Below are positions 26,589 to 42,779 of a stretch of DNA of 42,779 nt, piece by piece. Made by a program: the position numbers and the translations under genes. Numbering within the stretch: position 1 is the first letter of the stretch; every line of letters begins with the position of its first letter. The notes below the pieces were generated by a model. That model did no database searches, was not told the origin of the DNA, and saw only the letters and a list, made by a program, of their open reading frames with translations. Location: IMG/VR virus record IMGVR_UViG_3300045988_181578. One strand, given 5' to 3'. This DNA is from a virus.

Positions 26589-27451
26589 AAAAGCGTAAAG
26601 TCGTTGTCGAAATTTACCGCTTGTCCGCTGATAAAAAACAGCGGGATGTTTTGCTGACGCTTGAAGATTTATCAGTTCGTTTCAAAATCACAAAATATCG
26701 CGGAACTGTTTTTTCGCAAGGCACAATATCGGTGTGCGGATTGTCGAAAGAACATATAAACCATTTGACGACGTTTCAGGGGGCGTATCTTGCAACGCAA
26801 AACGATAAATATATTCGTCTGACAGCAGGATACGTTGAAGAAAATGACGACGAGTCGGCGGTAATTTTTGACGGATTGATTTTTAAAGCAATTCCGACAA
26901 TGCCGCCTGATATTTGGCTGAATATGGAAGTGTTTTCAAACTTAGACCTTGTTTCTAAAGAAAAAGAAATATCCATTGAAAACACCACGTCGAAGAGCCT
27001 TATAAAAAAAATAGCCGCAGAATTTTCTGTTCCTGTCGTTTTGGATTATTCAACATCCAACAAAACAATAGACAAGTTTTATTTTAAGGGGAATCTTCCG
27101 TCATTAGAAAGAAAACTCTATGAAATATTCAAAAACGACAAGATTTTTTATTATGAACAAGGAAAAATCATTGTTGACGACTGGGAAAAAACAAATCGAC
27201 CGAGCATTCCGTATTTAATCAATGTTGAAAACGGTATGGTTTTTATGCCGAAGCCGACGACTTACGGATGCGACGTTTCAATTTTCCTAAACCCGTTTTT
27301 TCAGATGTCGCAAATCGCACAAATAGAATCGACGCAAATCCCGTCGTTAAACGGCGAATATACTGTTTATATGTTGACACACGAGGGGACTTCCCGCGAC
27401 GTTCCTTTTTACACGCACCTTTCTTGTATGAGGATTCCGAGCAATGTCTGA
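26585..27451 (+). CDS. putative baseplate hub / tail protein
   Basis: 288 aa; ATGA coupling. Confidence 0.35.
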   Translation: MKKRKVVVEIYRLSADKKQRDVLLTLEDLSVRFKITKYRGTVFSQGTISVCGLSKEHINHLTTFQGAYLATQNDKYIRLTAGYVEENDDESAVIFDGLIFKAIPTMPPDIWLNMEVFSNLDLVSKEKEISIENTTSKSLIKKIAAEFSVPVVLDYSTSNKTIDKFYFKGNLPSLERKLYEIFKNDKIFYYEQGKIIVDDWEKTNRPSIPYLINVENGMVFMPKPTTYGCDVSIFLNPFFQMSQIAQIESTQIPSLNGEYTVYMLTHEGTSRDVPFYTHLSCMRIPSNV

Positions 27452-28139
27452 AACTTCAATCGTAAATGCAAACCCGCTTTCAACTGAAAGCGAACTTTTC
27501 GCACTTCAAGATTTATTACGTTCGATAAGCGCACAAATAAGCGTCTGTATGCCCGCTGTCGTTCAAGAGTATGATAGAGCATCTAATACTGTCAAAGTGC
27601 GCCCAGCGGTCAAATATATACGGAATGACGGCATTACGGAAAGCCGACAGATTATCACAATGCCCGTTGTCCGTTTCGGGAGCGCATTTACGGTTTCATT
27701 TTCTTTGAAACAAGGGGATTTGGGACTGATTTTTTTCGCCGACCGCGATTGCTATAATTTTTTGAAGACACTCTCCGAAGCCGACCCGAATACCAGACGA
27801 GTCCACGCCGTTGAAGACGGTTTCTTTTTGCCGTTCAATCTTTCGACGGCAGATAATACAACGGCAGACGTTTCAATTCAAAATTCGGACGGCACGGTCA
27901 AAGTTGAAATGACGGCGGAAAAATTAACGCTCACGAATGGCGAAAGCACGCTTGTTTTTGACGCGAACGGCGCGACCGTTTCTAAAAATGTTTCTGTTTC
28001 GGGAAATACCGAATCGGCAACGTATTCAACGGGCGGCGTTGCGGGACTGACAACGCAGGTTGTTGAAATTCACGATGTTTCAGGCGCGACAAAGCAAACA
28101 CTTACTTTTACAAACGGACTTTTGACGCAGGTTTCTTAA
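27444..28139 (+). CDS. baseplate central spike (P2 gpV / Mu gp45-like)
   Basis: N-terminal OB-like MPAVVQEYDRASNTVKVRPAV...MPVVRFGS...KQGDLGLIFFADRD followed by a Thr/Ser-rich beta region. Confidence 0.5.
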   Translation: MSETSIVNANPLSTESELFALQDLLRSISAQISVCMPAVVQEYDRASNTVKVRPAVKYIRNDGITESRQIITMPVVRFGSAFTVSFSLKQGDLGLIFFADRDCYNFLKTLSEADPNTRRVHAVEDGFFLPFNLSTADNTTADVSIQNSDGTVKVEMTAEKLTLTNGESTLVFDANGATVSKNVSVSGNTESATYSTGGVAGLTTQVVEIHDVSGATKQTLTFTNGLLTQVS

Positions 28140-28204
28140 TCCTTGCTTATCGGGCGATTATCCGATAAAATTAGGACATTATTTTTTGAAAGGAAACAAA
28201 CCTT

Positions 28205-28645
28205 ATGAAAGCTTACAGATATAATTCTGAAAACAAAAAGTATGAAGGAGAAACGACGTGTCAAATCGACCCATTGGAATCGAAACTGGCAGGCAAAGAA
28301 GTTTACTTGTTGCCCGCGGATTGTACCTATGAAGAACCTCTGCCCGAAAAAGAGGGTTTTGACATCATCTTCAACGGTACGGCTTGGGAATACAAGGAAG
28401 AAGAAAAGAAACCCGAAGACGAGCCTTACGTTCCGACTGAAAAGGAAAAGACCCAATGGGCTATCTGGAAATTGAAGTCCAAGCTCGCCGAAACGGATTA
28501 CAAAGTGTTAAAATGCACCGAAGCGTCGTTGTGCGGACAAGAATTGCCGTATGATTTAGATGCCGTTGTTTCCGAGCGCGACGGGTGGCGGTCTCAGATT
28601 AACGAGCTTGAGGAAAAGCTCAAGACGATTAAAGAATCCGAATAA
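28205..28645 (+). CDS. hypothetical protein (acidic, possible fibre-assembly or accessory protein)
   Basis: RBS gaaagga. Followed by a terminator. Confidence 0.45.
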   Translation: MKAYRYNSENKKYEGETTCQIDPLESKLAGKEVYLLPADCTYEEPLPEKEGFDIIFNGTAWEYKEEEKKPEDEPYVPTEKEKTQWAIWKLKSKLAETDYKVLKCTEASLCGQELPYDLDAVVSERDGWRSQINELEEKLKTIKESE

Positions 28646-28651
28646 GAAAGG

Positions 28652-28677
28652 GGCGGGATTTTTCCCGCCTTTTTAAT
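28652..28677 (+). terminator. rho-independent terminator
   Basis: Stem ggcggga / tcccgcc with loop ttttt, then tttttaat. Confidence 0.6.
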
Positions 28678-29276
28678 ATGACTGTTTACGCATATTTACG
28701 GGTGTCATCTGTTTCTCAAGACGAACAAAATCAGCGGCAAGGTGTGGATGCTAAAGCCGTTGCTTTGAATGTTCACATCGACAAATACATTGTTGACAAA
28801 GTTTCGGGGACAAAAGAGCCGAAGCTCCGTAATCTTGGAAGCCTTGCCCGACGTTTGAAATCGGGCGATGTTGTTATTGTTTCGGAGTTGTCCCGCCTGT
28901 CCCGCCGTATATTCACGCTTTGCCGACTATTTGAAGACTTGCTTGAAAAGGGCGTTCGTGTTTACTCGGTGAAAGAAAACTTTGTTCTTGATGATTCGCC
29001 GCAGTCGAAAATGCTGATATTTTGTTTTGGGATGTCCGCTGAAATTGAACAACGTATGATTTCTGCTCGGACGCGGGAAGCTTTGGCGTATCGTAAACAA
29101 CAGGGCATCAAATTAGGACGTCCAGTAGGCGCAAAGACGAAAAAGCATAAGTTAGATGTTTACGCCGAAAAAATCGCCCTGTGGCTAAAAAAGGCGTTTC
29201 GCGCAGAAAGATTGCAAAACGGTGCAAGGTGTGTGAAAAAACGCTTCGCAAGTGGTTGCGTAAAACGAACGTTTAA
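28678..29276 (+). CDS. Gin/Hin/Cin-family serine DNA invertase; the HTH domain lies in the -1 frame after the A-run at 29187-29193
   Basis: YAYLRVSSVSQDEQNQRQ (Ser nucleophile), DKVSGTKEPKLRNLGSLARRLKSGDVVIVSELSRLSRR and MISARTREALAYRKQQGIKLGRP match the Gin catalytic domain. The -1 frame encodes KKGVSRRKIAKRCKVCEKTLRKWLRKTNV*, which matches the Gin HTH GIPRKQVALIYDVALSTLYKK. The 0 frame instead reads through into fibre cassette V2 (track ORF 28678..29571). Confidence 0.75.
29187..29193 (+). other. A_AAA_AAG heptamer at the invertase catalytic-domain/HTH junction (candidate -1 slippery site, or a homopolymer indel)
   Basis: cta aaa aag in the 0 frame. A -1 slip yields LWLKK-GVSRRKIAKR..., the exact frame that encodes the HTH. 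Confidence 0.5.
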
Positions 29277-29291
29277 TCTGCCGAACTTTAA
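29266..29291 (+). other. inversion crossover site A (core AACGTTTAATCTGCCGAAC)
   Basis: One of four copies of the about 19-bp core AACGTTTAAYSTGCCGAAY. Overlaps the invertase stop and the start of cassette V2. Confidence 0.55.
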
Positions 29292-29571
29292 TGGCAAAAC
29301 GGTGTGGCAACGAACAGATCATCAAGTTGGAATTCCGACTGTAGGTCAACTGCCGAATATTACGGGTGGGGTAAATATAGACCACGCAAACCTTCTAAAT
29401 GCGTTTGGGTGCTGTACCGCCGATTCTAATATAGGGCAATACTATGGTACGCAGTTAGAAAAACACCTGCAAAGATTGTTGATTGACGCTTCTAAATCAT
29501 CGTCAATTTATCAAAACGTTAATCTTGTCGTTCCAGCAAACAATTCTGTTGTGTTTTGTATACGATACTAA
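29266..29571 (+). other. silent tail-fibre C-terminal cassette V2 (TFNLPNFNGKTVWQ ... FCIRY*)
   Basis: Homologous to the C-terminal 112 aa of the expressed fibre (FN.PN.N, LPNITG, ASKSSSIY, VVP, FCIRY). Has no start codon of its own. Convergent with, and abutting, the fibre gene 3' end. Confidence 0.7.
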
Positions 29572-30500
29572 TATCTGATGCAAAAATGTATCACCCCAGA
29601 TGCAGGGACGACTTGCGTTTCTCCGTCTTTATAAATTGAACTTGAGCGCGACGCATTAAAATCTTGAGCTGTTTGTCCATCCCATACGTACGTCAAAGTA
29701 CAAGCCAAACCACCACCATCCTTATAAGTTCCGGTGTTTATAGCACCAGTTCCATTATACAAAACAGGGCGCCTACTATCTTGACTTGTACCTTGAGCTG
29801 TCCAACTGGCGGTGATATTTGGTAACCTACCAGCCAGTATTGTTCCAATAGAAAGCGTACTAGATTGAAACACCGTTTTATTGTTAAGATTCGGCACATT
29901 AAACGTTGTATTTCCGTCCCCTGCACCCCACGTTGTCCCGATGACATTGAACAGACGCGCGTAAGTGATGCGGGAAATAGCCGCGCCGTTGCAAATCAGA
30001 TAACCGTCGGGAGCGTCATTTGCAGGCCAAGTGATAATTATTCCTGTCGGAAGTCCCGCGTCAATAAAAGCCCAATGCACGCCGTCAAGATATTCGGGAT
30101 TTGTTAAAAAGTTAAACGTGTTGTTTTCGACAAGGGAATAAACCGCCGTCGGTTTTCCGCCGACAATCGCCCACAACAAAGCCCCCTGCGGATACCCGCC
30201 GATAGCGTCTGAAACTGCTTGATTGAACGAATATGTACCGCCGTTTTGAGCGAAGAAGTTATGTTGCGAAACGGTGTTAAAAAGACCGTTAAAGTCTTGC
30301 TGTTTCGGGGGAAGTCCCGATACCTGTGTCGGCAAAGGATTTTCAATTACGGGCATACGGGTAATGGCAGGAAAACCCTCTTGGAAAGATGCACGATTCG
30401 TCCCTGTTGCGCCGTTCGGAATAGCGTTAATGTTTTCGCTTGTCGCCTGTGCGGCAATCGGTTGTGGGATTACGACGGGGGTTGTATTTGAAGTCGCCAT
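29568..30500 (-). CDS. tail fibre protein (P2 gpH / Mu S-like); constant N-terminal part plus variable C-terminal cassette V1
   Basis: C-terminus TFNVPNLNNKTVFQ...ASRSSSIYKDGETQVVPASGVIHFCIRY. RBS aggag. Gene order W-J-I-H. Confidence 0.7.
   Translation of the reverse strand: MATSNTTPVVIPQPIAAQATSENINAIPNGATGTNRASFQEGFPAITRMPVIENPLPTQVSGLPPKQQDFNGLFNTVSQHNFFAQNGGTYSFNQAVSDAIGGYPQGALLWAIVGGKPTAVYSLVENNTFNFLTNPEYLDGVHWAFIDAGLPTGIIITWPANDAPDGYLICNGAAISRITYARLFNVIGTTWGAGDGNTTFNVPNLNNKTVFQSSTLSIGTILAGRLPNITASWTAQGTSQDSRRPVLYNGTGAINTGTYKDGGGLACTLTYVWDGQTAQDFNASRSSSIYKDGETQVVPASGVIHFCIRY
29887..29910 (-). other. inversion crossover site B inside the fibre gene at the constant/variable boundary
   Basis: Minus-strand acaACGTTTAATGTGCCGAATct encodes TFNVPN. 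Inverted relative to sites A and C. Confidence 0.55.
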
Positions 30501-31118
30501 TTATTTAACTCCTATGCTGTCTACGACAAAAACGCCGTTGTTAAAAGGTTTAAGTCCGCTTCCCTCGAAACCGAACGTTTCTTGCGGCGGAATCGGTGTA
30601 ATGGATGTAATTTTAACGCCAGACGGGCGCGGCAGAAAATCGTTTAATTGCAAAACGATTTCTTCTTCCGCCGTCGGAAAAAAGTCTAAAATGTACGTTA
30701 TGGACATATTCAAATTGTCCTGCACATAAGACTTGTTGTCTGGATGATTGAAGAAAATTTGCCGAATAAACGTGTTTACGTTTGAAAACGTCGGCGCGTG
30801 AGAGTTCTTATACAGTTTTGCGTTCAAAAGCAGTCTGTAAGACTCCGTCGGAATGGGGACAAGTTCGCCGTCGGCGTTCGTATACAAAGGACGTTCCAAA
30901 TTCAATAAAAATCCCCACAACGTCAAACCAAATTCGTTTGCCGTCTGAATGTTCAAAACGTCATCAATCCAGCGTTCCCAAAAATCAGAAACGGCATCAT
31001 CGTAAAAGTTTTGTTTAAACGCAATAAGGGCGTTAAAGTTCGGCGCGTTGTCGTACTGCCAAAGGATAACGTTTCTTGCATTAAAAGCGATTTCTTTTGC
31101 GACATCGTAATTCTTCAT
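30501..31118 (-). CDS. baseplate/tail protein (P2 gpI-like)
   Basis: Position between the J-like and fibre genes; ATGA coupling. 205 aa. Confidence 0.45.
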   Translation of the reverse strand: MKNYDVAKEIAFNARNVILWQYDNAPNFNALIAFKQNFYDDAVSDFWERWIDDVLNIQTANEFGLTLWGFLLNLERPLYTNADGELVPIPTESYRLLLNAKLYKNSHAPTFSNVNTFIRQIFFNHPDNKSYVQDNLNMSITYILDFFPTAEEEIVLQLNDFLPRPSGVKITSITPIPPQETFGFEGSGLKPFNNGVFVVDSIGVK

Positions 31119-32320
31119 TGAACCACCACCGAAACATCATCAGACGTTAAAAGCGCGCATTGTTTTGAAAGGATTGAAACGCCACTGACTGTTTGTTGTT
31201 CGCCTTTTTTACCCGCAACGACTTGAACAATTTTAATTTCAGGGATTGCTTCGGAAACGGCGGAAGCGATTTCAAAAGTGTTTACATTATTCCCGATTAC
31301 AAGCCCCTCGACGTTCGGATTTTTGTTTTGCGCCCAAGCGACAACGGCATCTTTTACATCTTGATAAATGTTGTTTCCCTGATATTTGTTCAAAGAAACC
31401 GTGATTGTCGTTTGAACTTCGATATATTCGGGGCGATTGAACGTAACTTGGACGTATCGGTCGTTTATCGCATCGTATCCTAAACCTGTTTCGGACTGTC
31501 CGCTAATCGCCGTGTATCCGCATCCGACGTTTTTTGCGGACGCAATGGCATTGTAAATGTCTTGAACAAGTCCGCCGTCCACAATGATGCACAAAGAGTG
31601 CGGAGCAACAGAAACACCGTTAACTTCAACTGCCGTGTCGTTATAATTCTCGTAATACCAAGAAGATATAACGCCGTTTACGCCCGACAGTTTTCCTTTG
31701 ATAGAATCGTTATATCCGTTCGCTAATTGTTGAGCGTACAAAATACGTTCTCGATAAGAAGAATCGCTTTCTTTTTCATATCCGATAATGGCGGGGTCGG
31801 GATTGTTTATCGTTTCCCACCCCGAAACGCTTGAAACGATTTCCGTTAATGTTCCGACGGGACAAGGAATTTGTCCGAGTTCAACCGACTGAAAATAAAC
31901 TTCCGCCTTGCCGTTTGTGTCCAGTTGAACCGTTCTTTCGCTTTCAAAAACATTTCCGTCCGTTGTCTTTGCTTGTGAACCCACAGGGATAATAGTCCCC
32001 ACAACGCCCGCCAAAGAAACAAGAACTTGCGTCGGTTGCGCATATTTTCGATAGACTAAAACTTTTGCGCCGATTGCGTCCAAAAAATCGCCCGATGCCG
32101 TTTGGATGTTTTGAGAATTTGCCATTAAAGCGACAACGCGGATTACCTGTTGACGCAATAACGTATCGTGTTCGATCAAACGACCCTGCGGCGTTGACGT
32201 TTCAATGGACAAATCCGCCCCGAAAATATCTTTATATTCGTTTTCAACGTCCGTTTTTACGTCGCCTGTATTCGGAATAACAACGCCCGTGGACGTAACA
32301 TAATCGTACAAATCAGCCAT
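31115..32320 (-). CDS. baseplate J-like protein (P2 gpJ / Mu gp47-like)
   Basis: 401 aa. Position W-J-I-H. Confidence 0.6.
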   Translation of the reverse strand: MADLYDYVTSTGVVIPNTGDVKTDVENEYKDIFGADLSIETSTPQGRLIEHDTLLRQQVIRVVALMANSQNIQTASGDFLDAIGAKVLVYRKYAQPTQVLVSLAGVVGTIIPVGSQAKTTDGNVFESERTVQLDTNGKAEVYFQSVELGQIPCPVGTLTEIVSSVSGWETINNPDPAIIGYEKESDSSYRERILYAQQLANGYNDSIKGKLSGVNGVISSWYYENYNDTAVEVNGVSVAPHSLCIIVDGGLVQDIYNAIASAKNVGCGYTAISGQSETGLGYDAINDRYVQVTFNRPEYIEVQTTITVSLNKYQGNNIYQDVKDAVVAWAQNKNPNVEGLVIGNNVNTFEIASAVSEAIPEIKIVQVVAGKKGEQQTVSGVSILSKQCALLTSDDVSVVVQ

Positions 32321-32322
32321 TT

Positions 32323-32667
32323 TTAACCCGCAATCGTTGTTTCACCGTAAACCGTCGAAACGTTCATTTCATATTTTAAAGTGCTGTCTTCAATTCGCAT
32401 TGCAAAATTCACCACAGAATTTACGCCGTTAATCGCTTCAACGTTATTAAAAATCTGTTTTCTAAACAAAAAAACGTCGGGCGGCGAATTGAAAACAGAG
32501 CCAAAATAATCAACGCCGACATTTGTAGCCAACTGACATTCGCTTAAAACAGTCTGAATCCGCTGTTTTATGACCAATGCCAAAGCGTCAATATCAGACA
32601 CCAACGCCAGATTGCCAAGCGCATCTAAATAAACGTCATTGTCCGAATTTGTCGCTATCGTTTTCAT
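32323..32667 (-). CDS. baseplate wedge protein (P2 gpW / GPW_gp25-like)
   Basis: 114 aa. Precedes the J-like gene. RBS aaagg. Confidence 0.5.
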   Translation of the reverse strand: MKTIATNSDNDVYLDALGNLALVSDIDALALVIKQRIQTVLSECQLATNVGVDYFGSVFNSPPDVFLFRKQIFNNVEAINGVNSVVNFAMRIEDSTLKYEMNVSTVYGETTIAG

Positions 32668-32739
32668 TGAACGCCTTTCATTTCGTTAAATCCTATAACA
32701 ATTTGAAATCTTTGTAAAGGCAAAATCACGGGACGAAAA

Positions 32740-32762
32740 ATCAACGTTTAACGTGCCGAATT
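32740..32762 (+). other. inversion crossover site C (AACGTTTAACGTGCCGAAT)
   Basis: Conserved core at the start of cassette V3. Confidence 0.55.
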
Positions 32763-33058
32763 TTAATAACAGAATTCCGCAGGGAAGTGGCAGCCGTGGA
32801 ACGGTCGGTGCGTATTTGTCGGAAAGCTTGCCAAATATCACAGGTACTTTTGGTGTCCCTAAATATGAAATAGTGAATGTAGGAACTGGAGCTTTTACAT
32901 CTACTGTGAATGGAACAGAATATAACATGTCATCACTCGAAGTTAACAGAAATGGGCACTTTTTCTATTTTTCAGCTTCCCGTTCATCTTCTACCTATCA
33001 AGACAATGCACCCGTTCAGCAAGCGGCGACGGTGGTTAATTTCTGCATCCGATATTAG
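32742..33058 (+). other. silent tail-fibre C-terminal cassette V3 (TFNVPNFNNRIPQG ... FCIRY*)
   Basis: GTG-initiated ORF in the track. Shares LPNITG, SASRSSSTY and FCIRY with the fibre C-terminus. Confidence 0.7.
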
Positions 33059-33357
33059 TATTTGATGCAGAAATTAATGTTAATTCCAGACGGTACAACA
33101 AGATTGTCGGAACGTGAGTAGGCGGACGACGAGCGGGATGCGTCAAAATTAAAAGCTCTGTTAGAATTCGTAGTCCCCGTAAGGTGAACATATTGTACGT
33201 CAATTCCGTTTAAAGCAAACGCCCCAGAAGCACTATACCACAAATTTCCACCTTGTTGAACATAGCCTGTTATTTTCGGCAAACTACCATTAAAGGATGT
33301 CCCCACAACCCCACCCTGCCAAACGGTATGATTGGTGGAGTTCGGCACATTAAACGT
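33055..33357 (-). other. silent tail-fibre C-terminal cassette V4 (TFNVPNSTNHTVWQ ... FCIKY*), convergent with V3
   Basis: Shares LPKITG, DASRSSSAY, VVP and FCIKY. A TAG stop lies immediately upstream of the conserved core. Confidence 0.7.
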
Positions 33358-33360
33358 TTT
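33339..33360 (-). other. inversion crossover site D
   Basis: Minus-strand aaAACGTTTAATGTGCCGAACtc. Confidence 0.55.
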
Positions 33361-33531
33361 TTTTGCTTTCCTAAAAAGACTTATTGATAAAAAGAACAGA
33401 TTGTTTTAACCTATAAGTAGTCAAATTTTTATAGATATAACGAAAATGAAAAATTACAACGTGAAAGCCAAGGAATGGCAACCGCTTTCAGACATTATTC
33501 ATGTAAACGTCTTTATAGAGGAAGCAGAATA

Positions 33532-33780
33532 ATGGAACACGTCATCGAAAAACTTAAAGCGTGGGGCTGGGTGATAATGACAATTTTCACCGTGTCCTGT
33601 TTTATCCAAACACTTATTCAGTTGTCCCCGCGTGTTACGGAATTGGAACGTCGCGCCGCCATTACAGAGGGCAAGGTTTCAATGATTGAGGTTAAACTCG
33701 ATACAGTTTTGCACCAGACGACCGAAACAAAGAACGACGTAAAGGACATTTACCGAATCTTAATTGGGGAAAAAAAATAA
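33532..33780 (+). CDS. small membrane protein with N-terminal TM and C-terminal coiled coil (holin/XhlA-like candidate)
   Basis: WGWVIMTIFTVSCFIQTLI TM, then ELERRAAITEGKVSMIEVKLD. RBS ggaag. First gene of the lysis cassette. Confidence 0.35.
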   Translation: MEHVIEKLKAWGWVIMTIFTVSCFIQTLIQLSPRVTELERRAAITEGKVSMIEVKLDTVLHQTTETKNDVKDIYRILIGEKK

Positions 33781-34305
33781 ATGATTCAAGCTTTGATTTT
33801 TAGCGTTTTCGGTGCTTTTTTTCGCCGCTGGTTCGGCGGGGGCTTTGGAAAGTTCGGCGACGTTTCGCGTTTTTGGAAATATCTTTCCCTCTCAATCGCT
33901 TTTATCGCCGCTTGGTTTTATCTAAATGGTATTGATTGGACGGCTTTGAAAATGTATGCCGCCCTTGTTTCTTTTATGGTGTTTTGGGCGGTGGGACACG
34001 GGACTTGGTTCGTATACTGGGATGATACGGCGGCGGCAGAGGGGCGAATCCCGCTTATTGATAAAATTGTTTGGTTCTGTATCGGCGTTGATGAATCTCG
34101 GACGTTTTGGGGAAATTGCTTTGGAATGTTTGTCCGATATACGATTACGGCAATTCCCGTTGCAATCTTCACAAGCCCTCTTTTTTTGACCGCTGGCGCG
34201 ATTGTCGCACTTTCCTATGTTCCCGCAGGGTTTAAACAGGATACGCGCCTTGGTGAATGTTTGGCGGGCTTCTTTGTGTTCTTTTTGCTCTGGTGGTGCT
34301 TATGA
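33781..34305 (+). CDS. multi-pass membrane protein (putative holin or lysis accessory protein)
   Basis: 174 aa with 4-5 hydrophobic segments. Lies immediately upstream of and ATGA-coupled to the peptidase gene. Confidence 0.4.
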   Translation: MIQALIFSVFGAFFRRWFGGGFGKFGDVSRFWKYLSLSIAFIAAWFYLNGIDWTALKMYAALVSFMVFWAVGHGTWFVYWDDTAAAEGRIPLIDKIVWFCIGVDESRTFWGNCFGMFVRYTITAIPVAIFTSPLFLTAGAIVALSYVPAGFKQDTRLGECLAGFFVFFLLWWCL

Positions 34306-38488: not shown

Positions 38489-38564
38489 CCTTTTAACTCC
38501 TCTTTCTTTTCGTAAAAAACATAAGTAGTTCCACCGCAAAACGGGAAAGACTTCAAGTCTTCAC

Positions 38565-38783
38565 TCATTCCAGATTCTCCCTTACTTTTTCCTCGATTTC
38601 TTCAATTTTTTCATCAGACAACAGCGGCATAATGTCTACACCGCCGACACAAACGGAATTAACGTAAACATCAGTCTCTGTACCCCTTGAAACACCCCAA
38701 CTGTAAGGCTCAAGGGAATACGTTTCTGTTTCAAAGCTAATTGACAGCAAAACGCCGTCAACCGTGATTTCGATTTCAGCCAT
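38565..38783 (-). CDS. hypothetical protein (72 aa)
   Basis: RBS aaggaaaagg. First gene of the minus-strand operon. Confidence 0.45.
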   Translation of the reverse strand: MAEIEITVDGVLLSISFETETYSLEPYSWGVSRGTETDVYVNSVCVGGVDIMPLLSDEKIEEIEEKVRENLE

Positions 38784-38957
38784 TTTCCTTTTCCTTTTTT
38801 CAGAGCAACCGATTCGCCCCGTCCTTGTTTTATTTGTACCAAATTACAGAACATTAAGCAAGTTTTTTTGTTTTTTTTTCAAAAAAATAAAATATCGCAG
38901 AAACCGCCGTTTTTTGATAAACTGAAAACGGAAGCATTTTAATGAAAGGAAAGCTTT

Positions 38958-39167
38958 ATGGAAAACATTATCGAATATGCGAATCAAGCGTTATACTGGA
39001 TAGGTGCGATTGTTACGGCGGCGACTGTAATTGTCCGCATCACTCCGTCGACTCGCGATGACAGCGTTCTTGAAAAAATCATCCACATTTTGGATTATTT
39101 TTCCGTTGTCAATCCGAACGGGACGCGCACTTTAAAAATCGTGGGAAAGAAAAGCGACAACAAATAA
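38958..39167 (+). CDS. small membrane protein (N-terminal TM)
   Basis: ALYWIGAIVTAATVIVRI. RBS aaagga. Confidence 0.45.
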   Translation: MENIIEYANQALYWIGAIVTAATVIVRITPSTRDDSVLEKIIHILDYFSVVNPNGTRTLKIVGKKSDNK

Positions 39168-39709
39168 TTTGCGGATGTCCGCCGAGTTGCGTCCGTGGGC
39201 TTGGGAACAGAACGAACGGAACGGTGGTTTTCGCGGGATAGACCAGACACAACAAATCCCGTTTTTTTTATGAAAGGTAAAACAATGAGCGAAAAAATAG
39301 AAATCGTGTTGAAAGACGAGGAAAGACAACCTTGCGAGGTGTGGACGCGTGAAATCCCATAAACGCGCGTCCTTAAAAAGTCATCTAAACGGGGGAACGC
39401 CCTTGCGGTCTATCCCGTGCTAATAAAAATGCCTAACGACTATCCCGAAAGGGAGTAGGTGCAAGCGCACCGAAACGGTGACAGCCGATTATATCGGTTA
39501 TGATATAGTCTAATCTATGCGGCGACGTATAGCAGTTCATAAGAGAACGGCTTTTCAGTAGCGAAGAGAAGTGAATAAAATCAAATGGTTATGGGTTATT
39601 TCCGCCCCGTTTCCGAATTCAATATCGGCAAGAAATCCGAATATGCGGAACGGGTGTGTTTCAAGGAATCTGTTTCAATGAAGCACGTTGAAACAGGGCA
39701 GGCGGCGGA
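39168..39709. other. 0.54 kb non-coding structured region
   Basis: No ORF over 25 codons. Several hairpins: atcccgaaagggag, ccgattatatcgg, and a 9-bp stem ctgtttcaa/ttgaaacag at 39670-39696. Confidence 0.4.
39234..39270 (+). terminator. weak rho-independent terminator
   Basis: Stem cgggat / atcccg followed by T8. Confidence 0.35.
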
Positions 39710-39913
39710 ATGAATGACTTAACTATTACCGCCATTGCTGGCGTGTTTGTTTCCGTAATTTCGTTTTTGTCCTACAAACTTGGACGTGAACAAGAGGGGC
39801 ATAAAAATGCGGAAAAAGAAAGCGATGCGATTAAAGAAGCAAAGCGACTGCGGGAGCGTTTAGACAATGACTTTGATTTGCAAAAAGAAGTCAAAGAACG
39901 TTTTTCTCGTTGA
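39710..39913 (+). CDS. small membrane protein (N-terminal TM, charged helical C-terminus)
   Basis: TITAIAGVFVSVISFLSY TM followed by a KE-rich tail. Confidence 0.45.
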   Translation: MNDLTITAIAGVFVSVISFLSYKLGREQEGHKNAEKESDAIKEAKRLRERLDNDFDLQKEVKERFSR

Positions 39914-39951
39914 CAAGACAGACAAAAAAATGGAAATATATAAGAGTGTTA

Positions 39952-39977
39952 TTAACGTCTGAACGTTTTTTTTTTCC
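39952..39977 (+). terminator. rho-independent terminator (weak stem, T10 tail)
   Basis: aacgt ctga acgtt followed by T10. Confidence 0.4.
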
Positions 39978-40015
39978 TTTTTCCTTGCGTTCTTTCCAAA
40001 AGACGTTAATCATAA

Positions 40016-40058
40016 ACGACGACGGTTTTGCCAAGTTTTCCGTCGTCGTTTTTTTTTG
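40016..40058 (+). terminator. strong rho-independent terminator
   Basis: 10-bp perfect stem acgacgacgg / ccgtcgtcgt followed by T9. Confidence 0.65.
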
Positions 40059-40068
40059 AGGTGTATGA

Positions 40069-40263
40069 ATGAAGCAATTTAAAGCCCGTACAGCGTTTCT
40101 TATGTTTCTGTGTGTCTTTTTGTTGTCTGGGTGTTCAAAACGCCTGTATGGCGGATTTTGCCTGCTTTATCAGCCTGTTTTTTTGGATTACAAAAATGAT
40201 ACGGATGAAACGATTAAACAGGTCGAAAAAAACAACGTCGTATATATGCGGTGTCAAAAATGA
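40069..40263 (+). CDS. small lipoprotein (lipobox L-S-G-C)
   Basis: MKQFKARTAFLMFLCVFLLSGCSK signal peptide with lipobox. RBS gaggtg. Confidence 0.55.
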   Translation: MKQFKARTAFLMFLCVFLLSGCSKRLYGGFCLLYQPVFLDYKNDTDETIKQVEKNNVVYMRCQK

Positions 40264-40408
40264 TTTTGTTTAATTTAAAAAGCCCTTCGGGAATAATCGC
40301 CGCCGTTGGTATTCGTTCCGAAACATACACGCCCACCAATGTAAATCGGTGGGACGTGATAACCTTCCAAAAGGACGGTAAGATTTTTACAACGTTCGGG
40401 CGGTTTTA

Positions 40409-40687
40409 TCCGATTGAAACACCGTCGTAAAAGTCTTTGTATTCAAAGAACTTTCCGTGGAACTCGTCCCCGTCTTCAATGGCTTTCAAAAATCGCCTTA
40501 AATTGTTAACGGTTGTTCGGACTTCGGAATAAAAGTTATCCCTCCAATACGATTCAAGAGTTTCATAAACTTTAACTCACGATTGGCTTTGTTGCCGTTT
40601 TGCCAGAGACTCCACGCCGATTTTTTGATTGTCGCAATCCTGCTTGTCCGTCGATACCCGCAAATATCCGTACACCGTCATTTTCAT
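40409..40687 (-). pseudogene. decayed serine recombinase (resolvase/invertase/integrase-type) N-terminal remnant
   Basis: MKMTVYGYLRVSTDKQDCDNQKIGVESLAKRQQSQS*VKVYETL...NNLRRFLKAIEDGDEF keeps the Y-x-R-V-S-T-x-x-Q nucleophile motif and the R..L..l..GD block, but has an in-frame TGA and has lost the D..SG and DRLGR motifs. ATGA overlap with the MT-A70 gene stop. Coordinates are approximate. Confidence 0.4.
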
Positions 40688-42004: not shown

Positions 42005-42779
42005 TTACCCGAAAAACTTTTTCAATTCACTGTTTCCATACTGCCCTTCCGTGATTTTAATAATTTCGGAAACAGTCATAGTTTCTTGAATTTTATCGCT
42101 GTTCGTTTCGACAAAATGACGTGTTCCCGCTTCGCAAGCACCCGTGATAACACGATACATTTTAATCGCTTCTTCTTTCGTCAAAACACTGTTTTTATGC
42201 AGATGCTTATACGCAGACGTATCGCGTTTGCCGATTTTGTACATCAAAGAAGCGCGTGCTTCTTCTATTGTTTCCCCGTGAGCGAATCTTTCGCCGTCAG
42301 TAACAATGAATTGAACTTTAAGACCGATTTTGACTTTCCAAACGTTCTTCTTTTGGGAAAGAACTTCGCAGAAAATTCCGTCAAAAATTCTATATTTGCC
42401 CCCTTTCCAAGACAAAAGATTTTCAATGTTGAAAGTCAATTTTTTGACTTTTTCTCTTTCTTTTTGAGTAATGCCCGTGCCGCACAAGTCCAGCGAACCG
42501 CCGACCGTCAGATTGTCGGGCAGTGACGTAATGCCCGTGCCGCTCAAGTTCAGCCAACCGCCGACCGTCAGATTGTTTGGCAGGGACGTAATTTTCGTGT
42601 CGCTCAAATCCAACGAACCGCCGACCGTCAGATTGTCGGGCAGGGACGTAATGCCCGTGTCGCTCAAATCAAACGAACCGCCGACCGTCAGATTGTCGGG
42701 CAGTGACGTAATGCCCGTGTCGCTCAAGTTCAGCCAACCGCCGACCGTCAGATTGTCGGGCAGGGACGTAATGCCCGTG
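42005..42779 (-). CDS. LRR protein, C-terminal part (LRR array plus about 160-aa non-repeat C-terminal domain); continues from the window start
   Basis: Track ORF 42005..42727 carries TSLPDNLTVGGSLDLSDTGI repeats. The frame stays open to the window edge. Confidence 0.6.
   Translation of the reverse strand, partial: TGITSLPDNLTVGGWLNLSDTGITSLPDNLTVGGSFDLSDTGITSLPDNLTVGGSLDLSDTKITSLPNNLTVGGWLNLSGTGITSLPDNLTVGGSLDLCGTGITQKEREKVKKLTFNIENLLSWKGGKYRIFDGIFCEVLSQKKNVWKVKIGLKVQFIVTDGERFAHGETIEEARASLMYKIGKRDTSAYKHLHKNSVLTKEEAIKMYRVITGACEAGTRHFVETNSDKIQETMTVSEIIKITEGQYGNSELKKFFG
42480..42779. repeat. 60-bp tandem repeats (5 copies), the same family as at 1-277
   Basis: Units are identical or near-identical to the window-start array. 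Confidence 0.9.

Follow-up and report, generated by a model that had tools for sequence, protein, structure and literature searches.

Fibre switching by DNA inversion is textbook biology, and to our knowledge only the variable ends of the fibre move in every case described so far (Gin, Cin, Pin, Min, and Rin). The Min multiple-inversion system of p15B was reportedly described by Sandmeier et al. in 1992. The invertible G segment of Mu spans 3 kb and the C segment of P1 spans 4.2 kb (PMC12529663). Min of p15B uses a serine invertase and more than two crossover sites to produce several fibre C-termini by successive inversions, and in the Rin shufflon of Bifidobacterium prophages, a gut-phage receptor-binding protein combines a constant N-terminus with alternative C-termini of 95 to 100 aa at short repeats, with isomers observed between related genomes (PMC6109161). 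In cyanophages, a multi-gene module bounded by inverted repeats is found in both orientations with no correlation to phylogeny (bioRxiv 10.64898/2026.02.14.705889, where an invertible region of ~30 kb in the related cyanophage Elbi is also cited).

Here, we analysed a locus in a gut phage, using a stretch of 42,779 nucleotides (IMG/VR record IMGVR_UViG_3300045988_181578) that we refer to at its full length as the window. The locus is a multi-inversion system of the Gin/Min type in a new arrangement. As in Mu Gin/G, P1 Cin/C, and e14 Pin/P, the sites fall within the fibre gene, where its constant part meets the variable part, inversion swaps convergent alternative C-terminal cassettes, and the enzyme is a small serine invertase; among solved structures, Mu Gin is its closest relative (best PDB match, E 3e-12). 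Mu and P1 have two sites and a single invertible segment that excludes the constant part (Sc), and each variable part has its own chaperone (U, U′), whereas here there are four sites (A to D), the constant part (Hc) lies between sites B and C, and a single chaperone gene lies outside. The cassettes are also only ~100 aa long, and three baseplate genes are flanked by sites as well. The combination of more than two sites with several alternative fibre C-termini (here four sites and four intact cassettes) is shared with Min. In Min, however, the constant ORF is fixed and has all of the cassettes to one side, while here banks of cassettes flank the constant ORF and its operon, and both banks can be reached only if the ORF and operon invert. 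The Rin and R64 shufflons likewise join a constant N-terminus to alternative C-termini separated by short repeats, but Rin and Rci are tyrosine recombinases that leave the constant part outside the invertible DNA; here, the enzyme is a serine invertase and the constant part is inside. The cyanophage module, also bounded by inverted repeats, multi-gene, and found in both orientations, is much larger and has neither a demonstrated recombinase nor a link to fibre-cassette splicing. A first-pass annotation of the window had called its invertible unit unusually large, but at 2.8 kb it does not exceed the Mu G or P1 C segments; what is unusual is the content of the segment, the constant fibre part together with baseplate genes.

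Results

Four crossover sites and two banks of fibre tips flank a baseplate-fibre operon

A search with the core AACGTTTAATGTGCCGAA, allowing at most one mismatch, returned four matches only (0.13 expected by chance). These sites alternate in orientation, and the inverted pairs AxB, BxC, CxD, and AxD were all detected, so that the short inverted crossover sites flanking invertible DNA that characterize Hin/Gin/Cin/Pin-type systems are present (Table 1). The B/C pair has the longest well-matched arms (29876-29923 and 32727-32774, 48 nt, 81% complementary), and the A/D pair has the best core match (26 nt, 88%). We infer that crossover occurs at the palindromic AACGTT centre.

Each of the four sites opens one intact fibre-tip cassette. 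All four cassettes start with TFNVPN and end with FCI[RK]Y*, the latter as part of a common C-terminal end, ASRSSS.Y..VVP..FCI[RK]Y. The A-B and C-D segments (~0.6 kb each) contain only two convergent cassettes apiece, without an assembly gene; the tfa-like gene lies outside all invertible DNA as the final gene of the plus-strand tail operon. In every relative, as in the window, the cassettes are intact ORFs whose ends are shared, and Hc is 90-99% identical among relatives whose C-termini differ strongly.

The interior between B and C holds the W-like, Baseplate_J, and DUF2612 genes and the constant fibre part, all on the minus strand. The first-pass annotation had placed a W-J-I-fibre operon between these sites and proposed that a BxC flip of about 2.8 kb would carry gpW, gpJ, gpI, and the constant fibre part; indeed, the inverted sites B and C enclose all four on a 2.84-kb stretch, and each gene was identified. 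It had further argued that a BxC inversion is needed to put V3 on the fibre, and the cassette-pair geometry agrees, for V3 and V4 alike. Since AxB, CxD, and AxD inversions leave the cassette pairs invariant, only a BxC-type inversion takes the fibre to V3 or V4. The flank order is identical after BxC and after AxD, and AxD also flips the operon. Four sites allow 16 arrangements in all, given two orders within each bank, the side on which each bank lies, and two orientations of the module.

Table 1. Features of the invertible locus and its flanks, in window coordinates
Feature	Position	Strand	Remarks
Single tail-fibre-assembly-like gene (tfa), 146 aa	28205..28645	+	phrog_105, phrog_7290 'tail fiber assembly'; Caudo_TAP_N in relatives
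Terminator-like hairpin	28652..28674	+	GGCGGGA-TTTT-TCCCGCC, then TTTTT; between tfa and invertase start
Small serine DNA invertase, frameshifted	28678..29274	+	PF00239, E 4e-30; phrog_125 'DNA invertase'
Crossover site A	29268-29285	+	Core match
Cassette V1, 100 aa	29269..29571	+	Now fused to broken invertase ORF
Cassette V2, 112 aa	29568..29906	-	Now the expressed fibre tip
Crossover site B	29890-29907	-	Core match; within Collar domain coding sequence of fibre
Constant N-terminal 198 aa of tail-collar fibre (Hc)	30500 to ~29907/29908	-	PF07484 Collar
DUF2612/Phage_Wedge1 baseplate wedge gene, gpI analogue	30501..31118	-	Domain match
Baseplate_J gene	31115..32320	-	Domain and phrog matches
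gpW/gp25-like sheath-initiator gene	32323..32667	-	PF10934, phrog_120
W leader within invertible module	32668..32742	-	75 nt, site C to W ATG; conserved
Candidate promoter element, TGTTATAGG (TGnTATAGG)	32700-32692	-	W leader; then RBS AAAGG
Candidate -35, TTTACA	32718-32713	-	W leader
Crossover site C	32743-32760	+	Core match
Cassette V3, 104 aa	32744..33058	+	Silent in window isomer
Cassette V4, 100 aa	33055..33357	-	Silent in window isomer
Crossover site D	33341-33358	-	Core match
Site D outer flank and lysis-cassette leader	33359..33474	+	

Close relatives carry the module in either orientation

The orientation of the module was compared in ten related metagenomic phages, window included. 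It was colinear with the tail operon in five (L004, L005, L006, L010, and L015/16) and flipped in the other five (the window/L001 lineage, L009, L014, L017, and L018), in line with the view that the operon must work in both orientations. Orientation was interspersed on the module tree: the flipped L018 is 97.5% identical to the forward L006, and the flipped L009 is 96% identical to the forward L004. Because relatives carry both orientations, interspersed on the tree, we conclude that the module inverts in nature and that the window is itself a flipped isomer. The window is therefore not the ground state for which it had been taken, as judged against the spike-W-J-I-fibre order of a distant relative. 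Both isomers thus occur among the relatives, not for the window lineage.

L004, L005, L006, L015, and L017 have the same four-site layout, in which a pair of inverted sites encloses the module, and module homology stops at sites or site remnants wherever both flanks are covered. L011 and L014, whose modules are 99.8% identical, differ by an AxB flip and as such isomers show that the inversion system is active in the family. The contigs L007, L008, L014, and L017 end at, or a few hundred bases from, a site, and the invertase is intact in L007, L008, and L014, the three of these four that carry its gene. Contig breaks near sites are the pattern that mixed isomers in a sample would be expected to leave. 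L004 and L005 likewise have an intact invertase; the samples with an intact gene are ERZ19650256 (L004), ERZ15609757 (L005), ERZ26858473 (L014), SRR25448461 (L007), and SRR25448193 (L008), and L001 comes from ERZ27229692.

Metagenome assemblers can misjoin at repeats, and the flipped order of the window could in principle be a misassembly at its inverted repeats. We consider this extremely improbable. At 18-52 nt, the repeats are shorter than the assembly k-mers (k119, k141) that the contig names give for two related assemblies. A second, independent contig of 42.4 kb, obtained from a different sample, matches the window colinearly at 99.985% identity, and two short contigs, originating from two additional samples, show an unchanged arrangement across the C junction. 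The flipped order is also common to four other lineages.

Cassette comparisons and the choice between inner and outer sites

Comparison of cassette types between lineages gave signals in both directions as to whether BxC or AxD moves the module. The T2/T3 pair remains at the Hc end: in forward L004 it is found on the lysis side, in flipped L018 and L009 on the invertase side. This single discriminating comparison fits the outer pair, as does the best core match between A and D. On such an account, only AxD and the small AxB and CxD flips would be used, the operon would move with its attached bank, and the far bank, V3 and V4 in the case of the window, would never be joined to the fibre by the invertase and would be no more than a reservoir for homologous recombination. 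However, the far-side cassette pair is intact, with its N- and C-terminal motifs kept, in every four-site lineage, and the longest well-matched arms are those of B and C. Moreover, the decisive cassette identities are just 75-88%, and cassette pairings are clearly reshuffled between lineages. We regard exclusive use of AxD as a minor, though real, possibility and infer that the inner (BxC) pair is the one used. Since the pairings differ between lineages, ordinary recombination also reshuffles the locus, and some of the orientation differences could therefore be old, fixed events.

The invertase is repeatedly inactivated, and the window lineage is probably locked

The Resolvase domain of the window invertase gave a clear catalytic domain match; a second serine recombinase in the window is a remnant only. 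In frame 0, the invertase ORF runs through site A into V1, producing a 297-aa ORF that ends at 29571. The HTH can be reached only in the -1 frame past an A6 run (29187-29192), with a tail ending ...KKGVSRRKIAKRCKVCEKTLRKWLRKTNV* whose stop (29272-29274) falls within site A. Exactly this predicted HTH tail is borne by the intact 199-aa relatives P0123 and P0125. At the run, L014, with its intact 199-aa invertase, has A7, and the window and L001 have A6. The window invertase has lost one A from an A7 run. Programmed -1 frameshifting on A AAA AAG (29187-29193) was also considered as the design of the enzyme and is unlikely, given that A7 occupies the run in L014, the only intact-invertase relative checked there, that in close relatives the 199-aa protein, predicted tail included, is encoded contiguously, and that the L009 gene is broken by another indel.

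The invertase is inactivated in five of the ten lineages: by the frameshift in the window, by a different indel in L009, by a deletion from within the gene to site B in L010, and by inversions in L006 and L015. The L006 inversion is short and turns the 3′ end around; that of L015 is long and has moved the 3′ end to the D side. In these two lineages and in L010, the extra rearrangement joins a site to a point within the invertase gene. With the invertase dead in half of the lineages, inversion may be rare or selected against. Entire cassette banks have been lost in L009, L010, L012, and L018; the deletions observed in L012 and L018 are head-to-head, and the palindromic centre of the sites may permit them.

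The dead invertases, the lost banks, and the lack of window-lineage isomers in databases would also fit a Gin-like system in decay, with accidents accumulating at sites and quasi-sites; the two orientations would then be rare, fixed evolutionary rearrangements and not a programmed switch. Such an origin seems to us quite unlikely, because orientation switches between lineages that are 96-97.5% identical, the module breakpoints fall at sites or remnants wherever both flanks are covered, the events in L006, L010, and L015 connect a site with the interior of the invertase gene, AxB isomers exist within one lineage, and contig ends fall at or close to sites where the sample has an intact invertase.

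For the window lineage, ~15 billion proteins were searched by exact sequence. Hc-V1 (two junction variants), Hc-V3, Hc-V4, Inv-V2, Inv-V3, Inv-V4, and the repaired window invertase were absent from this set; only Hc-V2, present on 4 contigs, and the Inv-V1 fusion were found. The C junction has the same arrangement on L001, L002, and L003, the three contigs on which it was read, and at six further places with the W protein, the neighbouring genes were reported as mostly the same. With the J protein as query, IMG/VR, JGI metagenomes, and GTDB genomes each yielded a single locus. No GenBank phage matched the module by megablast, and the W leader, used as a DNA pattern in IMG/VR, returned only the same contig again. 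Because its invertase is frameshifted and databases hold no isomer of the lineage, the system is probably locked here, with the window isomer probably frozen in the flipped state and its fibre joined to V2.

A conserved leader ahead of the W gene is a candidate promoter

The first-pass annotation had proposed a sigma-70-like promoter in a 75-bp gap between site C and the W start. The gap measures 75 nt, and TTTACA is present on the minus strand. As a promoter, the candidate draws its support from conservation and not from its consensus score: TTTACA-17-TAGGAT scores 9/12 against a sigma-70-type consensus, which is not above chance, and a consensus scan gave 20 matches against 13.2 +/- 3.3 in shuffled sequence. 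TTTACA-15-TATAGG with TGn is an alternative spacing. Across nine lineages, 60 nt of the leader are nearly invariant (4 mismatches against 33.5 expected), making the leader ~8 times more conserved than coding DNA. In 11 lineages, neither TTTACA nor TGTTATAGG varies, the differences being confined to the spacer and to the outside, and the leader stays ahead of W irrespective of the upstream sequence. In L018 and L012, the W and lysis genes are divergent across an intergenic gap of only 167-195 nt. The fold of the leader is nothing unusual (z -0.16), and an Rfam scan of 28000-34000 found no family above threshold; a PrrB/RsmZ match (22.6 bits against a gathering score of 44) was dismissed as chance-level.

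When a repeated late-promoter motif was sought elsewhere in the genome, the sole convincing second copy was in the lysis-cassette leader. A 26-nt motif in that leader (33421-33445) resembles the W leader.

The exact terminator-like hairpin motif after tfa is kept in L001, L004, L006, L007, L008, L009, L010, and L018. Directly upstream of the W leader, L009 has an 18-bp hairpin with a U-run (z -6.7) and L006 has an 8-bp hairpin with U5. These hairpins bear on whether the operon is instead read from outside, by the tail operon when forward and by a leftward lysis-side promoter at ~33372-33474 when flipped. A second TTATAGG on the minus strand (33410-33416) and the chance-level score of the leader are compatible with such an arrangement. 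The conserved hairpin after tfa and the U-run hairpins of L009 and L006 speak against it, however, as does a leader more conserved than the genes it precedes with both hexamers invariant, and we judge an outside promoter unlikely. We therefore interpret the W leader as a putative promoter, with a predicted minus-strand transcript start near 32685, ~7 nt past TATAGG, in either orientation.

Discussion

The evidence, on balance, favours the view that the 2.84-kb stretch is a real invertible module, a self-promoted, swivelling operon within a four-site multi-inversion system served by a small serine invertase. We propose that the A-B and C-D banks would each offer a convergent pair of alternative fibre tips, with the operon of W, J, I, and the constant fibre part acting as a swivel between them. 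Depending on the orientation of the operon, the fibre would continue into either the left or the right bank, and a small flip (AxB or CxD) would then select between the two tips of the joined bank. All tips would share the one chaperone gene, which is not part of the invertible DNA. The operon would work in both orientations because its own promoter and RBS would travel with it in the 75 bp that separate the W start codon from site C, and the terminator after tfa may insulate it from the upstream tail operon.

More tentatively, and as a reading on which we remain nearly evenly divided, the locus may be a "two-sided" shufflon, in which a self-promoted baseplate-fibre operon is the central segment between two banks and the invertase also cuts quasi-sites in its own gene. 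Cutting of this kind, of which the inversions in L006 and L015 and the deletion in L010 may be the traces, would lead lineages to lock in one state repeatedly. If true, a two-sided shufflon would double the host-range repertoire without duplicating the constant part and would be a simple design for access to cassette banks on both sides of a gene.

The moving part at this locus is the constant end of the fibre with three essential baseplate genes, and natural phages have it in either orientation. An essential late operon can thus be an orientation-independent cassette, given an internal promoter, here a candidate, and an upstream terminator. Such loci break metagenomic assemblies at the sites, yield unusual or fused ORFs (here the 297-aa invertase-V1 fusion), and can make close phage relatives appear rearranged. 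That the invertase has died repeatedly and independently suggests that switching trades off against stability, a balance that could be measured.

Genome and crossover sites

The phage genome is ~42.4 kb, comes from gut metagenomes and encodes structural proteins like those of Pseudomonas phage E217 (precomputed Pfam families E217_gp29/31/32/41, Pam3_gp18 and Dit_like); as for a host, two MAG labels, Clostridium or Clostridiales, come from binning only. Tandem repeats of 60 nt, 86-97% alike, lie at both window ends (1-270 and 42180-42779), and an independent contig (L001), 99.985% identical to the window and circularly permuted relative to it, is continuous across the join. The window is thus a whole genome in circularly permuted form, opened within the repeats by the assembler.

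In the plus-strand tail operon, the tape-measure gene is followed by the Dit-like gene, the spike-like gene and, last, the tail-fibre-assembly-like gene (tfa). The core AACGTTTAATGTGCCGAA occurs four times at no more than one mismatch, against 0.13 occurrences expected by chance. Read in its own direction, each of these sites, A to D, encodes TFN[LV]PN, a stretch of the phage tail-collar domain, and leads into an intact cassette of 100-112 aa with the C-terminal end ASRSSS.Y..VVP..FCI[RK]Y and a stop codon. The B and C inverted repeats measure 48 nt and are 81% complementary.

Features of the module and its flanks in the window
Feature	Position	Strand	Evidence or context
Spike-like gene	27444-28139	+	tail operon
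Tail-fibre-assembly-like gene (tfa)	28205-28645	+	end of tail operon
GC-rich hairpin then TTTTT	28652-28674	+	sequence
Small serine recombinase gene	28678-29274	+	PF00239, E 4e-30; phrog_125 'DNA invertase'
Crossover site A	29268	+	core match
Crossover site B	29890	-	core match
Fibre, first 198 aa (Hc)	30500 to ~29908	-	between B and C
DUF2612/Phage_Wedge1 protein (I)	31118-30501	-	between B and C
Baseplate_J (J)	32320-31115	-	between B and C
gpW/gp25-like sheath initiator (W)	32667-32323	-	between B and C
Crossover site C	32743	+	core match
Crossover site D	33341	-	core match

The first-pass annotation had placed W, J, I and the constant fibre part between sites B and C, where four minus-strand genes were indeed mapped. 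Its geometry holds as well: AxB and CxD inversions exchange the two cassettes within one bank (V1/V2 in A-B, V3/V4 in C-D), AxD carries the whole banks along with the W-J-I-Hc module, and BxC alone switches the fibre from one bank to the other. Beyond the module, ~190 nt found in L004, L005 and L006 are absent from the window at ~33498, between the first two small lysis-cassette genes; these encode 91 aa and 83 aa in the relatives, and the window has a single 101-aa ORF there (33475-33780).

The module lies in both orientations among relatives

A search with the fibre protein returned many proteins whose first 198 aa were 90-99% identical to those of the window and whose C-termini were quite different; the contigs encoding them were fetched, and genes and sites were mapped on each. 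The module was forward in L004, L005, L006, L010 and L015/16, all colinear in the order spike, tfa, invertase, cassette pair, W, J, I, Hc, cassette pair and lysis genes, and flipped in the window/L001, L009, L014, L017 and L018. Across these ten lineages, known from assemblies that may in each case show the majority form among mixed isomers, module homology stopped at the sites or site remnants wherever both flanks were present. Forward and flipped states were interspersed in a tree of module DNA, and two flipped/forward pairs of modules were 97.5% (L018 versus L006) and 96% (L009 versus L004) identical. The window had been read as the ground state; the order spike-W-J-I-fibre-tfa in L019, a distantly related prophage that lacks an invertase, indicates that it is best seen as a flipped isomer instead. 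A related MAG contig (L012:1-9534) carries the spike gene (+), inverted lysis genes and then W-J-I-fibre (+), with a different fibre C-terminus and with no tfa, invertase or cassette banks; a divergent lysis-gene/W-operon unit thus also exists outside any inversion system.

Because BxC and AxD give the same flank order, they are separable by cassette identity only. AxD fits cassette types T2/T3, which stay with the Hc end of the module both on the lysis side (L004) and on the invertase side (L018, L009). BxC fits other types, whose place at the outer flank is the same in either orientation. Since cassette pairings vary between lineages, ordinary recombination also acts. The far-side bank is intact in every four-site lineage, though it can reach the fibre by the inner inversion only, and this is the best argument, an indirect one, that BxC would be used.

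A likely promoter in the W leader

The 75-nt gap between site C and the W start contains TTTACA and TGTTATAGG, as stated by the first-pass annotation, which had proposed a promoter there. Its consensus match is unremarkable: TTTACA-17-TAGGAT scores 9/12 against a sigma-70-type consensus that may not be the host's, and promoter prediction over the region gave 20 matches versus 13.2 +/- 3.3 in shuffles. What stands out is conservation. The 60 nt 5' of the W ATG show 4 mismatches versus 33.5 predicted from the module's own divergence in nine lineages (Poisson value 2e-10, overstated because the lineages are related). Both hexamers are invariant in 11 lineages, and the few changes all fall in the spacer or outside. 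The leader is also kept before W whatever its 5' neighbour, which can be a cassette but is unrelated DNA in L006 and L009, the lysis-gene leader in L012 and L018 and a truncated invertase gene in L010. Transcription is unlikely to continue out of the tail operon, since the hairpin after tfa is exactly conserved in eight loci, forward ones included. Hairpins also abut the leader on its upstream side, an 18-bp perfect one with a U-run in L009 (-25.7 kcal/mol, z -6.7) and an 8-bp one with U5 in L006. On these sequence features, an internal promoter in the W leader is likely.

The W leader resembles the lysis-cassette leader at 33421-33445 (23/26 nt). The two (32668-32706, minus; 33421-33451, plus) have TCAAATT(G/T)TTATAG..AT(T/A)TAACGAAA(A)TGAAA in common, and the W-leader copy holds a mini-ORF of five codons (ATGAAAGGCGTTCAATGA), the stop of which overlaps the start codon of W.

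Inversion in the family and probable locking in the window

Across J-I-Hc, L011 matches L014 at 99.8% identity, and the A-B segment is cleanly inverted between them, the invertase-adjoining cassette of L014 being the Hc-fused cassette in L011; by this comparison, the family has an active inversion system. Four contigs break off at a site or at most a few hundred bases away (the ends of L007, L008 and L017, the start of L014), as expected of an assembler faced with mixed isomers in a sample, and the invertase gene, present on L007, L008 and L014, is intact there (199 aa).

In the window, frame 0 of the invertase continues past site A into V1 as a 297-aa ORF, in which the catalytic domain is fused to the cassette and the DNA-binding helix-turn-helix (HTH) is missing. 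The -1 frame after an A6 run (29187-29192) encodes the expected HTH tail and stops inside site A; the close relatives P0123 and P0125 are contiguous 199-aa proteins with exactly that tail, and L014, with its intact gene, has A7 at this run. The identical frameshifted protein occurs on four contigs and is thus not a random sequencing error. The frame at the run reads CT-A-AAA-AAG (29187-29193). Since A-AAA-AAG is the slippery heptamer of dnaX, low-level -1 slippage could still yield full-length invertase. L004 encodes another serine recombinase of 308 aa, with 49% identity to the catalytic domain of the invertase; in the window it is reduced to a remnant (40409-40681, minus), with just its first 30 aa and last ~95 aa recognisable, and no ORF of at least 90 aa occurs in the 2.1 kb at 38540-40683. 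None of the predicted isomer proteins of the window lineage was found in the protein collection. The window copy of the system is probably locked.

Invertase inactivation is independent and recurrent among the relatives. L009 (8001-8582) has an indel different from the window's; the gene's 3' end is inverted between an internal quasi-site and site A in L006 (4821-5011) and lies inverted at the D side, ~4 kb off, in L015 (4156-4173, 8219-8236); and in L010 (6585-6654) a deletion reaches from a point within the gene to site B. Three cases join a point inside the invertase gene to a true site (quasi-sites near window 29085 and the SAEIEQ codons), and these rearrangements look like self-inflicted locking. 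In L012 and L018, the lysis-side flank is joined head to head with the W flank through AACG(TT), which suggests crossover in the palindromic centre of the site.

Comparison with known inversion systems

The system shares its working principle with Gin/G, Cin/C and Pin/P, and its four sites bring it closest to Min of p15B; the tyrosine-recombinase analogue is the Rin shufflon of bifidophages (PMC6109161). In none of the five is the constant part itself within the invertible DNA. Here, in contrast, it makes up the central invertible segment together with three baseplate genes, with a cassette bank on either side; this is neither the Mu/P1 nor the Min layout, and the one chaperone is outside the invertible DNA. 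Contrary to the first-pass annotation, the segment is not unusually large, given 3 kb for G and 4.2 kb for C (PMC12529663). We found no description of a layout with the constant part as the central invertible segment in the literature searched. A programmed-inversion survey has DUF2612 proteins, tail protein I and tail-fibre-assembly proteins among the annotations enriched at predicted inversion loci (PMC9881135), an enrichment compatible with such loci being common yet not dissected.
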